From the NCBI GenBank assembly GCA_951406725.2, contig OX597819.1, positions 94,922,001 to 94,986,000 on the forward strand: a stretch of 64,000 nt of DNA, written 5' to 3'. The notes below the pieces were generated by a model. It was not told the DNA's origin. It was given only the letters and a program-made list of their open reading frames with translations, and ran no database searches. Of the stretch, positions 3,001-59,859 are shown in pieces. This DNA is from Octopus vulgaris. Taxonomy: Eukaryota. Every line of letters begins with the position of its first letter. Position 1 is the first letter of the stretch. The translations under genes were made by a program, and so were the position numbers.

Positions 3001-4351
3001 CCATCCAAAATGGTCTTGAAGCCATCTAATGAGGTCTCCATTCAGAAGGCTGTAACTTTAAATACTTGTGGTCTCAAACAGATACAATTGATCAATAAAG
3101 GAAAGAGTTTGATGAATGGAAGCCATGGTCATATTATGTGTACTACCTCATGTCTGCTAATTGGCATGTGTTGTAAGAGAGCCAAGTAAATCATGTCTTT
3201 GCTCTCCGATGTTTAGATGCCAAAAGAGGAAGTTGCAAGGCCTTGTGTCAGAATCTCACAGCTGCTTGCACCATCTAGCATTTAAACCCGCTGTCAAGGT
3301 AGGTAACTGCATCTACACTACCTTTTCTCCTGTCTCTTTCAACTTTTCTCCTAACATTAATCACATTATTTTCATCTTTTTTTCTTTTCTATACCAGTCA
3401 TCCTCTTCTTCCACAGTGACAGACAAAGGGTATTCTCCTTCAATCACATTTAACATCTTCATTTTACTTCAAGTTCAAACAAGTAGAATCATTTTTTGTT
3501 TCCTAGTGACAGCAAATACCACAATTAAAGGAAATAACTTGCTTCTTCTGAGGATGAGATGTTCAGCTTGATACAGGTGAAAATTTTTTTAAAAATGAGA
3601 GAAAAAAAAACATTTCTCCAAAAGATATCGCATACTTTTTATATTATGTGGAAATAAACAGGGCTAAAATTCCAGAACTACAAAACCATTGGTGGCTGAA
3701 AAAACATGCTAATTTGTATTACTTTATAAATAAAAACACAGTACTTTTTGAATAGTGTTATGTATTTTTTAAATATGGCATAGTATATATATATACATGC
3801 GTGCACACACACACACACACACACTTATATGCATATATGTTTGTGGTGTGTGAGTGTATGTGTATGTGTATATATGTGTGCGCACATGAGTGTGCATATC
3901 ATATTTAATGTATATAAACTGTTGAAAAGTATGATGCTCTGGTAATGTTTTTGTCTGGGAGAAAATGTCTTCATAAACATGTGTTAAAAACATCAGAATG
4001 AAGAGAACATCATAGCAGCAGGGACTCATTAGAACAATAGATGTATTTCACTCAAGTTCAAGTTTATTAATGCTGTAGACCCATTTGTCATTTGCTAAGA
4101 TAAAATTCATGCTTTGATATATAGGAAACTGAATAAACCTAAACTAGTATAGTGGAAAGCTTACTGGGCTGCAAAAAGCTCAATGAAACAGCATTAAATT
4201 ACATTCACCAACTGTGAATAAGACTAAATGTATATATCCTGCTGAAGGACATCTATATATATATATATATATATATATATATATATATATATATATATAT
4301 ATATATATATACACATATATAATATGTAATAAAACCAAGTAATGATATTTT

Positions 4352-4443
4352 GAATGCGTTTAATACATATGTTTCAGATCATTGCACTATAGACAAAAAA
4401 GGAAATTCATCTTATGCAAGATCTTCCTCAGTTAAGACACTTC
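4352..4443 (-). ncRNA. Type I hammerhead ribozyme, intact core
   Basis: Minus strand reads TTAA-CTGAGGA-AGATCTTGCA...TGCAATGATCT-GAAA-CATATG-TA-TTAA. All core nucleotides are present, stems I and II pair, stem III is palindromic, and the cleavage triplet is GUA. Confidence 0.8.
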
Positions 4444-4486
4444 AAAACATTAGTTGTGTGTGTGTGTGTGTATACATATGTATATA

Positions 4487-55361: not shown

Positions 55362-58180
55362 TATATAGAGGTTCCCACATTGGTTCATTGACTTTAGAAG
55401 GATGAAATTATTTATGAATTCCCATATCATCCTTGTATTGGAAAGCATGCTAATTATCTTTGTACTATTGTAATGGCCCTACTGCGTTTTGAACCATAAC
55501 TCTCAGATTTACTCAGCTTGGAACCACAACCTACTGTATCACCAGCAAAGGAAAAGAGTTGCCATAAAAGGTATTAATACCTATGTGAATATGCCTTGAA
55601 CAATCAACATTGGTCAACTTATAGTTAATGCCATGAACTTCAAAAGAAGCATGCAATTTTTCCTGCCAAATAGTTTTCCCCAGAGTTCTGGAAAATGTGG
55701 CATACAGTTATAAAAAGCTAGCAGACTCAAACTCAGACTCAGACCTGAGAGCCACACAACTGTCTAAACAAATCTGTTACTTTGATCAGTGAATTGGTCT
55801 CTTGCCTTCTTTCACTCTTTCATATTTAACATGCTTATGTTGTATTTGACAAAAGGCACTAACCTTAAATTGTAGTATTGAATAACACACAGATTATTTG
55901 CTGTGGTTTGAATTCCTTCTATTTAGTTCATCTTCAGTGGCTATGCCCTACCTTCATAATATCATCAAGCATGCTGAATTACAGAAGACTTCTAACAATT
56001 ATATTTGCTATTTTATGAATGTTATTCCATTGAATTATTTATATGTATACATGAAATAATGTCGGTTAATAAAATATGAAAGCTCAAATAAATATAAGCG
56101 TGATCATAGTCATCTTCACATGCAACCTACCTAGACAGTAAACTACCAGTGAAGAATATATGACTAACCACCACCATAAAGTACCATTTGGATTATAGTT
56201 TTGTTACTGTTGAAGTATGTAATGCTATACAATTAAGCACACAATAATGGATTACTTTGTGAGTTCATTACATATCTATTTAGGGTAGGCTGCAAATGAA
56301 TTTCTGAATGACATCAACAGCAACTACCATTAAGAGCCAAAGAAGGAGCTTTATGGGGTTACTTGACCTGGTAAAAATAGCAACCAAATTCCCTCAAATT
56401 ACATCTGTACTGTTTTAAGTAAAGTGGGGAACAGACGCATTAGAGAATAGAACTTTAAATGCTCTTAAAGAGATAGGACAGCTGGAGTACATTTGATAAT
56501 AGGTCTGCTTAGACAGAGCTGAGTTGGAAGTAAGCAACAATAACTATTACAAATATTCCCACTTGACTGAATCATAATCTTACAGTTGTTACTGCTGCTA
56601 ATTAGAGCAAATACAAATTTTTTTAGTTAAACATGACCAATAATTAAATTTTTGTCTCCTAATGGTAACAACACTCTGAGGTTTTACTGACAGAAGAATT
56701 AGAAATGCTCTGCTCTTCCTTGCGATAAACCAATTTATTTCAATATTGGGTTTTTTAGAGTCATTATTTGCTGACACAGACTGTCACTAGTTTCCTTGGA
56801 TCCTGTTATTTACAGATTATACTTGATTCTATTGATGATAATATTCTTTTATCCTACAGATTATTGTATCCTTTTATCCTTATCTTTTTAAGGAGGCATC
56901 TGTATATTCTACCTGGTTTCTCAACAGCTTCCAGAGACTTATAATCAGCCAGTGATCTTTCAGGTCTAGAATTCACAGAACACTGATAAATCATATAACA
57001 CTTTCACCAGAATTACTATCACCTGCTATTACAGTTTCTGATCAGAATGAGTAACAGTTACTGAGGCGTCATTATTTCAATGTTTCATGCTTATCTCAGT
57101 TGGTGCTCACCATATCTGGCAGGTGGAATACATTATGATTGATGCCTGAACTTAAAACAGTTATGTTTTCTAAACATGATACTAAATCTATCATTGGTTT
57201 AAGCTAATTTTTTTTGTCTTGTTTTCATTTTTTTCACCACCACCTTCCTTCAATGAAACAATAGATTTTTACTAAAAAGTTTGATAATATATTCTCCCTG
57301 CCACCACACATACTTAAACAGCTGATATATCTACAATTTATAAGCAATAATCACACACACACATATGCTTATGTGTGTGTGTGTGTGTGTGTGTGTGTAT
57401 ACATATACATCATATACACATAAACACACATACATGGTGATCAGTTAAAATACAAGGTTAAAGGCAATGTTTATAATACTTAAATCAAAATGGTCAAAGT
57501 ATTTGACCTTATGTGGTATTTACACAAAAATATTCTATTCCTTATAAATATTTATAAAATATCATTTGAGAGATTCATTTCCATCATATTAATCTCTACA
57601 TTTTATTTCTCAAAACATTTCTTCTCACATTCTCTCTCTCTCTCACTCTCTTACTCTTTGAAACACAAATGTAAACCAACGACATACAGTCAAGTCAACT
57701 CTGTTATTAATATGGTATAGCAGTGTCGTACTCTGTACAAAAATAAAGAAATCTTCTTGAATGGTAAACCTTTCAACTTATACCTACTTCTTCCCATGAA
57801 AACTAAGGGACCCTCTACATGATCACTCAAAATAGTAGCTAAATATCACTCAAATGTCTTTCTACAGAGAGTTGGCCTCTCATCATAGGCCTGCTCTATC
57901 AGGACTTACCCTAGGACTAAACAATTACAAGAACACTTCAGTTTGAGGGGGTCACTGCAAGATCAAGGAGCAATATTTCATTCCCTAGTGTAAACATGAT
58001 GTATAAACCAGAACGGGAAGCTAATATTCAGTACAAACGCACACACACAATGATACTTATGAGTACCTCTAATAGAAAATGAACTCAATACATCTGTAAA
58101 GTATATATTTTTATTGAGGAAATTGAAGGTACACATCCTGAACCAACTTATAATAAATAAATTTTTAATTTTTATTATTA

Positions 58181-58223
58181 TAACTGCTTGATGATTCCCA
58201 GCTGAGATGAAACTGGTTAGTTG
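58181..58223 (+). ncRNA. Decayed hammerhead-like motif
   Basis: TAACTGC-TTGATGA-TTCCCAGCTGAGAT-GAAA-CTGG-TT-AGTTG, followed by a short tail and TA repeats. Several core deviations. Confidence 0.35.
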
Positions 58224-59859
58224 CTGTGAAAAATTGTACCTTAAGTTTCCTCAATATATACGTATACAAGTGCACATGCACACATACACATATGACTTGT
58301 ACTGCTATAAAAGCTGGTTACTTGACCACTGGAGACAGTGAATGGATAAAGTAATTAGAGCATTGGGTAGTAGGTCCTGCTATATTTGCTATGACTCCCT
58401 GCAATCTGAGTTCAAATACTATTGAGGCCAACTTTGTCTTTCATGCCTTCAAGGCCAGTAAAAAAGTACCAGTCAAAGGTGTTGAACTGTAGAACTGTTA
58501 AAGGGTCAGGCAAGTTGCCTTACAGTATCTATTCTGGCTCATGCCTTTCTGACAGCAAAGCCTGTGATGACACTAATAACAAGCTGTATTGGTTTAAGTC
58601 ATTGGTGTTCTCTTGGTTAAATATAAGTAATGTGGAGAAGGGGAGACTTGCATACTGGAGTACTGCCAGTCTATTTCAAAAACTTTTGTCCAGGCCTGCA
58701 CATGTATGTACAGATACATCATTAACCTTGATTGGTGCACACCATCTCACACACATGCTGCCACTACCTCACCAGCTCTGCCTTTATCAACCAGCTGAAG
58801 AAACAAGATAATTTGTAGAAACTCTGCATAGTCCCAGAATCGTAAGGTAAGTTACCATATCTGTTTGGTATGGACTAACATTTTTCAATTCCATTTCATA
58901 TCTGTCTCATAGGCAACAGTTAGACCTCTGAAATCTTTTAGTTTCCTATAGATTTACATCTAGAAAGAGAGTGTATTAAAAATATTCCTCAACCACTTTA
59001 AAATAAAATTCTTAAAAGCCAAGACTCCAAGAGTAAAATTTTCCATTGTTTACTAAACAATACTTCACACTAGTACAAAAGAAAGTCTTCCTACTTGCAT
59101 GATTTTTCTTGCTTTTCCTTGATTGGCTGACACAAAGACAGCTATTGGAAGGCTACACAGCATTTATTGCACTACTTGAAGATCTCCCAATAGAATGAAA
59201 CAAGTGTACACTTGTTGCAGTCAGTAACTTACTAATATGTGTGTGTGTATGTTGTATCTGTAACTGACAGTATTAATTATATCTGACAATTGCAACTCAC
59301 ATGATCCATCTCAGACTTAGAGTCTCTAATGACACAATAATCTTTCTAAGAAAACTGTCAATAATTCTCTTGAGATTCTAAGGTGCAAGTTAACTAAGAC
59401 AATGATACCCTGTAGGCTCAGTCATATCAAACCAGCATTTATTGTAAGGAGAGGATGAAATAAATAACTGAAGGAATGGATGGAAAAGACTGGAATAAAA
59501 ACAGAAGTAAATCAGAAAGAAAGAAAGAAAGAAAAAGGAAGAGATATGAGTAAACAGAGAGAATAAAAGGAAGAGAGGGAAACAGAATAAAAAGAAGGAA
59601 GTAAAGGCACATGGAAAGGAAAAAGGCATGATTTGAAATGACATGAAGAAGAAAGGAGAGGAAAAATAATGAAGTTACAGAAATAAATTGTTGGTTCATG
59701 GTATTTACCAAAGAAAATTCCATTGAAAGCAAAAGGAAAATGCAAGAAAATAAAATAAAGAAACGATCTATTGAGCTGGGGAAGATGGCTGGTGGGGAGT
59801 TAGGAATTTAGCTTCATTGTTTTACTGACAATTGTAAGGAAATTATCCTCCTATAAAGG

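Follow-up and report, generated by a model that had tools for sequence, protein, structure and literature searches.

Hammerhead motifs in the window and their repeat families

The stretch of DNA analysed here, called the window, is the 64-kb interval G000:C6:94922001-94986000 within a 2.80-Gb animal genome. It is AT-rich and crowded with TA and CA microsatellites, and it contains six hammerhead ribozyme (HHR) or hammerhead-like motifs, sites 1 to 6, all of which were found where an initial annotation of the bare sequence had placed them (Table 1). The sites are very probably decayed 3′ ends of several families of endonuclease-bearing Penelope-like elements (PLEs), in which a minimal type I hammerhead precedes a short tail and, in most cases, TA repeats. 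Family S3, to which site 3 belongs, has a core with an A3-U8 pair in place of C3-G8; selection has probably maintained this pair, and the core is predicted to cleave itself as a dimer. This core, and a young seventh family, S7, which forms the palindrome 6425-6705, had both been overlooked by the initial annotation.

Table 1. Positions of element ends and related features, counted within the window.
Feature	Position	Strand	Description
Site 1 (family S1)	4322..4450	-	5′-truncated element end; HHR core CUGAGGA 4431-4425; predicted cleavage after 4364
S7 long-tail arm of head-to-head pair	6425..6609	-	Hydra-clade PLE end truncated within HHR stem II
S7 short arm (inverted partner)	6608..6705	+	Terminates in TA
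Mirror of site 2	8480..9218	-	Inverted and 5′-truncated; HHR core at 8650; short 3′ end
Broken end of PLE open reading frame (ORF)	9213..9686	+	CX4CxxC linker and GIY-YIG endonuclease with CCHH; in-frame stops; 52% identity to P0001
Site 2 (family S2)	9970..10410	+	3′ untranslated region; HHR core CUGAUGA 10216-10222; predicted cleavage after 10247
Site 3 (family S3)	24729..24960	-	PLE 3′ end; A3-U8 core AUGAUUA 24895-24889; predicted cleavage after 24871
Site 4 (family S4)	40694..40866	+	Hydra-clade PLE end; core at 40711; stem III CCAATGG; predicted cleavage after 40763
Site 5 (family S5)	48553..48700	+	Core at 48578; U·U at base of long stem II; predicted cleavage after 48652
Site 6	58181..58258	+	HHR-like relic; only the 3′ half is common to three other copies

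Each of the six sites, judged singly, is weak evidence. A strict type I descriptor recognised only site 1 in the window, and the permission of one core mismatch added eight further rows, site 4 among them. A relaxed descriptor matched the window four times (sites 1, 4, 5 and one other), compared with a mean of 1.25 in dinucleotide shuffles, and two of the 40 shuffles reached at least four matches, so that the motif frequency is in no clear excess. No hammerhead was present among the 150 Rfam matches listed of 358 in the window, and the Rfam hammerhead families gave 0 matches at the gathering threshold in eight loci.

The repeat families of the sites were retrieved by searching the genome itself, with at most 40 candidates scored per search. 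This returned 48 matches from 286 candidates for S1, 43 from 1169 for S2, 43 from 1514 for S3, 43 from 417 for S4, 43 from 56 for S5, and 47 from 2465 for S7, the best copies of which are 97-99% identical. Site 6 yielded three matches from three candidates, the site itself included. The copies aligned were the top 30 of S1, 25 of S2, 20 of S3, 25 of S4, 20 of S5 and the three of site 6; because they are top-ranked, the samples lean towards window-like copies. All 11 core columns carry the majority base in 17 of 30 S1, 21 of 25 S2, 17 of 20 S3 and 6 of 20 S5 copies. The positions that define a minimal type I hammerhead (U4, G5, A6, A9, G12, A13, A14, the pair A15.1-U16.1, and H17) and stems I and II are present in the majorities of S1, S2, S3, S4, S5 and S7, with stem I of S2 being just 3 bp long. 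Sites 1-5 are thus repeat families with a conserved core, which bears out the hammerhead identification made in the initial annotation. An alternative S7 core, CUGAUGU, was rejected, and the core of this family is CUGAAGA, about 20 nt upstream.

The C3-G8 pair is present in S1, S2, S4, S5 and S7, and replaced in S3 and in two further families, S8 and S9. The base of stem II is a U·U mismatch in 21 of 25 S2, 17 of 20 S5 and 15 of 16 untruncated S7 copies. Natural occurrence of a U10.1-U11.1 mismatch at this position is already known (PMC3088659, PMC7229834; comparisons with these and the other cited sources refer to the parts of them that were accessible). The dimer-type, palindromic stem III described by the initial annotation was supported, in that self-duplexes of -6.1 to -8.3 kcal/mol are predicted in eight family copies; site 4 is near-palindromic with 7 nt, and the dimer stem III is lost or weak in the window copies of sites 3 and 6.

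The individual sites differ in preservation. Site 1 has a long stem II, the stem III CATATG, and TA/CA repeats on either side. Site 2 has U·U at the base of stem II, the stem III GCGC, and a long tail followed by (TA)n. Its mirror arm is broken at about 8692-8983 by an inverted-repeat insertion about 290 bp in length. The inverted ends of this insertion measure 41 bp (88%), and it resembles a miniature inverted-repeat transposable element. Stem II of site 3 has 2 bp, stem III is CCGG in the family, and the window copy carries three CpG-type G-to-A changes relative to the family majority. The window copy of site 4 is G8A, and family S4 mostly has CUGAUGA. Family S5 is old (71-89% identity), and its 3′ end lies beyond the end of the window copy. 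The shared 3′ half of site 6 comprises the end of stem II, GAAA, CTGG, the cleavage triplet and the tail, so this site is half supported as a hammerhead.

Two general statements of the initial annotation stand in part. The families are unrelated insofar as self-BLAST detected no similarity among the six sites, but a relationship between sites 2 and 3 is evident from their proteins. The density of one relic per 10 kb holds in the window (seven insertions in 64 kb) but not elsewhere: loci of these families are spaced there at about one in 27 kb, a value derived from flanks that are possibly enriched. It corresponds to 20 bystander family-locus matches to the family profiles, 13 of them S7, in about 0.54 Mb of other loci, with 0 in reversed controls. 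PLE relics are abundant in the genome, at tens per Mb.

The A3-U8 core and its relatives

The core of S3 is AUGA(U/A)UA. In all 20 aligned copies, AUGAUUA lies between stem I, UGUC/GACA, and stem II, GC-GAAA-GC, after which come GAAA, CCGG and UC. One exact 33-mer occurs 33 times in the genome. A genome-wide pattern in which positions 3, 7, 8 and loop II were free gave 821 matches, compared with 0 for the reversed control. A hand count of the first 100 listed of these 821 matches found 93 with A3-U8, one with U3-A8, two with G3-U8, four mismatched and none with C3-G8. Pattern-intact A3-U8 copies number at least 33 by exact match and roughly 760 by extrapolation. Twenty fetched loci represent subfamilies that have U or A at N7, several versions of loop II, and UGUC/GACA, UAUAUC/GAUAUA or UGUAUC/GAUACA as stem I. 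The A3-U8 core persists in these subfamilies while their stem I covaries; the tails of the site 3 subfamily and the other subfamilies are about 79-88% identical. In a structure count of 26 rows, 20 of them distinct, 88% of the cells are paired and 8 of 10 pairs are changed on both sides, a result that 0 of 500 shuffles equalled, and slid controls are 12-42% paired. Eight of 34 rows were left out of this count: one was spurious and another a duplicate, five had a loop of 5 nt, and one had a longer stem II. The reading of the S3 core as C3 with an inserted A was ruled out, since the C in question covaries with the base that follows C17 (CG 15, UG 3, UA 2). A single S3-like copy, L189:3993-4033, has C3 and U8 (CUGACUA) and could be a product of decay or an intermediate.

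No natural A3-U8 hammerhead was found in the literature covered, which included few subscription papers, and Lunse et al. 2017, who described PLE hammerhead variants, could list one. The U3-A8 covariant is already known among the minimal HHRs of PLE pseudo-long terminal repeats (pseudo-LTRs), and neither the A3-U8 core nor cephalopods are among those described in the accessible part of that study (PMC4209133). U3-A8 covariation is likewise known among natural HHR core variants, and A3-U8 is unmentioned in the corresponding sections of PMC3088659. Octopus hammerheads were not found in the literature covered either. The words ribozyme and hammerhead have 0 occurrences in the accessible text of PMC13282606. 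Pending Lunse et al. 2017, the A3-U8 lineage appears to be a new natural form of the hammerhead, for which cleavage is only predicted.

Relatives of S3 carry other pairs at positions 3 and 8. The sister family S8 (42 matches from 1612 candidates) has U3-A8 in all 15 displayed motif copies and is the source of the U3-A8 match to the S3 pattern. S9, also a sister family, has U3-A8 too, and both families are endonuclease-linked. Among more distant relatives, seven of seven metagenome loci related to P0001, a 698-amino-acid protein with reverse transcriptase (RT) and GIY-YIG endonuclease, have C3-G8, share the stem III CCGG with S3, and show U·U at the base of stem II (C3-G8 identified by scan in six, by eye in one). 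These contigs, L190-L196, contain near full-length PLEs with the C3-G8 hammerhead about 170-200 nt past the ORF; L194 has in addition a second, inverted HHR from another family. A metagenome scan with the S3 endonuclease recovered no relative. In an endonuclease tree, in which the L183 ORF represents S8 and which is free of reference Neptune elements, S3, S8 and S9 are grouped at 88/87, apart from the C-G groups. From the sister families, the metagenome relatives and this tree, we infer that the core probably changed in the order C3-G8, U3-A8, A3-U8.

Element clades, insertion into TA repeats and element anatomy

The proposed origin from PLEs was corroborated by protein links for sites 2, 3 and 4 and family S7, and ORF remnants upstream of the hammerheads connect four window families to GIY-YIG/RT elements. 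Locus L124 is a near full-length S2 copy that matches P0001, and S3 copies run on into an ORF of the same type. Matches to both RT and endonuclease of P0001 were obtained for S2, S3 and S8, and the endonuclease side only was seen in S4, S7 and S9. The ORF end upstream of site 2 is in sense with it and matches Pfam GIY-YIG with an E-value of 9e-4, under the cut-off, as is the case for the PLE pieces that Pfam recognised. S2, S3, S8 and S9 are like Neptune/Nematis-type PLEs, which are characterised by GxKF, DKG, a CX2-5CxxC linker and a CCHH GIY-YIG endonuclease; these features were found for S2 and S3, with GxKF in S2 only. These motifs identify sites 2 and 3 as the 3′ ends of PLEs of the Neptune/Nematis type, Neptune being inseparable from Nematis in a comparison made without reference sequences.

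Site 4 and S7 are assigned by their endonuclease motifs to Hydra-clade PLEs. The CxCX5C linker, CxxC and CxH are visible in S7, which has no CCHH and gave sense matches in 5 of 30 long copies. S4 has these features in part, as judged from decayed frames and tblastn matches to P0006, P0009 and P0011. The Hydra motifs RWK and DKT are present in the related database proteins P0009 and P0006; S4 and S7 are known from their C-terminal side. Both families resemble published Hydra-clade PLEs in the C-terminal endonuclease, the canonical HHR and insertion into (TA)n (PMC8557442). S7 differs from them in its 3′ non-coding region of about 1.3 kb, which has an internal tandem duplication of about 250 bp, and in its tail of about 100 nt (loci L150-L169 and L217-L246). 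Older S7 subfamilies differ in stems I and III. Seven long S7 copies lie within about 190 kb at G000:C9:28.57-28.76 Mb, which suggests segmental or tandem amplification. Other Hydra-type PLE fragments occur beside S2 and S3 copies (L130, L099, L124, L127, L189), which is consistent with PLE clustering at shared targets. No ORF was found upstream of S1, where about 330 nt of pyrimidine-rich sequence are shared before sequence sharing ends, and the extended copies of S5 and site 6 contain no ORF link.

The initial annotation had described a tail of 35-140 nt followed by TA repeats. The distance from the predicted cleavage site to TA is about 34-160 nt, slightly wider than that, and sites 5 and 6 have only (TA)3. 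Random window positions have a (TA)3 start 30-170 nt downstream in 28% of cases, and (TA)4 in 13%. When (TA)3 was sought up to about 12 nt from the family 3′ end, it was present in 14 of 23 S2, 11 of 18 S3, 12 of 19 S4, 7 of 27 S1 and 18 of 19 S7 copies, compared with 3.6-4.5% in flanks. S5, with 1 of 13, is not TA-linked. The counts exclude copies with no identifiable end (0 of S2, 1 of S3, 5 of S4, 2 of S1 and 6 of S5), and some queries ended in a few TA bases, which causes a small upward bias in these counts. At the 5′ junctions of non-inverted copies, TA was present in 19 of 68, five times the background of 5.4%. The annotated TA targeting is supported, and the 5′ junctions favour insertion into existing repeats. 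A (TA)n target bias was reported for these PLE clades, and a microsatellite bias was hypothesised for Neptune (PMC8557442).

Homology stops abruptly at the 3′ end and fades gradually towards the 5′ end, corresponding to fixed 3′ and staggered 5′ ends. Head-to-head inverted pairs are common, in which one arm carries the tail and the other is short. A tail at one end only was observed by eye in all 17 displayed pairs of S2, S3, S7, S8 and S9 and in seven of nine of S1, which fits the PLE layout in section 6 of PMC8557442. An internal short TA-rich motif marks the position where short copies end in all seven families displayed. A direct tandem, or pseudo-LTR, is suggested by the apparent continuation into a next unit in metagenome loci L190, L191 and L193 (by eye); in this genome, only tails were seen.

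The window also contains inverted-repeat pairs or palindromes at 4471-5153, 27941-29187, 51800-52681, 2570-3572, 15669-16477, 5222-5363 and 17059-17249, several of them TA-bounded, and the first three resemble decayed terminal-inverted-repeat transposons. Inside a 2.4-kb TA array, a unit about 150 nt long is present in two direct copies, 22580-22735 and 23030-23160, and ends in a short hairpin and then TA. The unit has GAAA-CATG-TA without a hammerhead core, and one partial relative is in L153. It is possibly the 3′ end of another TA-targeting element.

Proposed mechanism and function of the hammerheads

The association of hammerheads with PLE ends and the targeting of (TA)n are published and thus known biology. 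The idea that the combination is new is not supported, as Hydra PLEs that have canonical HHRs and insert into (TA)n were already described by Craig et al. 2021 (PMC8557442). The families studied here are like the minimal HHRs of PLE pseudo-LTRs in type I topology, short stem I and palindromic stem III, and also in that a genome has many unrelated families, present mostly as single truncated copies and opposite-strand pairs (PMC4209133). They differ from these in that several close stem II by U·U instead of G-C, and in the 2-bp stem II of site 3.

The most likely mechanism would start from a tandem PLE transcript, in which two hammerheads may pair through their palindromic stems III and cut out the unit RNA. 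The GIY-YIG endonuclease would nick (TA)n, and the few internal TA units at the short end of the element may pair with the nicked target and prime reverse transcription. Endonuclease and RT would then insert 5′-truncated copies at (TA)n, and early termination or inversion would leave short relics. Since the genomic relics decay neutrally, only the source elements would be under selection. Earlier biochemistry found partial tolerance of other pairs at positions 3 and 8.

Several observations weigh against this interpretation. The motif count in the window is not clearly above that of shuffles, and the minimum-energy folds of most single copies are other structures. S1 and S5 are without an ORF link, and S5 is also without TA linkage. 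TA at the 5′ junction was seen in 0 of 17 copies of the old family S4, which are part of the pooled junction count and the alignment ends of which are unreliable, and in a noisy 5 of 24 copies of S7. The rows of the covariation count are kin, so the shuffle result is not a probability, and the two-sided change at 3-8 rests on two rows. The node uniting S3, S8 and S9 is unstarred and was built on a 136-column piece. In the accessible part of Roberts et al. 2023, only a G3-C8 swap rescued a type III hammerhead.

It is extremely improbable that the motifs match a hammerhead by chance, in a genome rich in AT and in microsatellites. The descriptor count, the TA background and the lack of Rfam matches are compatible with chance, but in the family majorities the cores and stems are complete, lie where they are expected downstream of PLE ORFs, and show compensatory changes. 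The family alignments refute chance for sites 1-5 and leave room for it only in the 5′ half of site 6. It is also quite unlikely that the elements seed TA repeats instead of targeting them. About 60% of 3′ ends have TA, compared with 28% of 5′ junctions, and internal TA motifs could expand; against this stand the fivefold excess at the 5′ junctions and the target bias already described for these clades. The initial annotation had further considered retrozymes. Non-LTR retrozymes share with the families here the type I HHR, short dispersed units and a PLE connection (PMC7229834; Li et al. 2026 preprint), but they are non-coding head-to-tail repeats, whereas the families here are 5′-truncated ends of coding elements. 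Self-BLAST of the six sites with flanks of 1.5 kb detected no head-to-tail short HHR arrays, and most families join PLE ORFs, so that a retrozyme origin for the sites as a whole is not supported. For S1, S5 and site 6, a narrower form of this idea, non-autonomous retrozyme-like or short-interspersed-element-like RNAs mobilised by PLE proteins, is unlikely, although it would explain why no ORF was found upstream of S1 or S5, and retrozymes have been argued to derive from PLEs (Li et al. 2026 preprint, 10.64898/2026.07.22.740005). The copies are dispersed, single or inverted, and not arranged in short head-to-tail arrays. S7 also appeared non-coding until its ORF was reached after about 1.3 kb; therefore, a long 3′ untranslated region can hide an ORF link.

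The identity of the sites as PLE ends is separate from the activity of the A3-U8 motif. This motif could be noncleaving, in which case it would have a structural or protein-binding role or be a dead ribozyme that active elements carry along. Swaps other than G3-C8 had low activity in the accessible part of Roberts et al. 2023, Naiad PLEs spread without canonical HHRs (PMC8557442), and PLE minimal HHRs are poor at cleavage in vitro (PMC4209133). We nevertheless regard a noncleaving motif as rather unlikely, since the other catalytic positions are fixed across subfamilies that differ at N7, in loop II and in stem I and whose tails diverge by about 12-21%, and the changes at 3 and 8 are both transversions from C-G that restore Watson-Crick pairing. 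Tentatively, and with some reservation, we propose that the A3-U8 form may function in nature as a ribozyme that is about 35 nt long and has a stem II of 2 bp and an obligate dimer stem III, that its PLE clade may have walked from C-G through U-A to A-U, that the form may have been kept while the clade amplified in several waves, and that standard descriptors would miss it.

TA-targeted PLE ends with HHRs are now seen in a genome, probably of a cephalopod, that is rich in such relics. Three natural states of the 3-8 pair in similar tiny ribozymes of one lineage would provide a direct test of the role of hammerheads in PLEs. Dimeric cleavage by the A3-U8 form would widen the natural core consensus and mean that current descriptors undercount hammerheads. 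If this form does not cleave, PLE hammerheads would be under selection for something other than fast cleavage.

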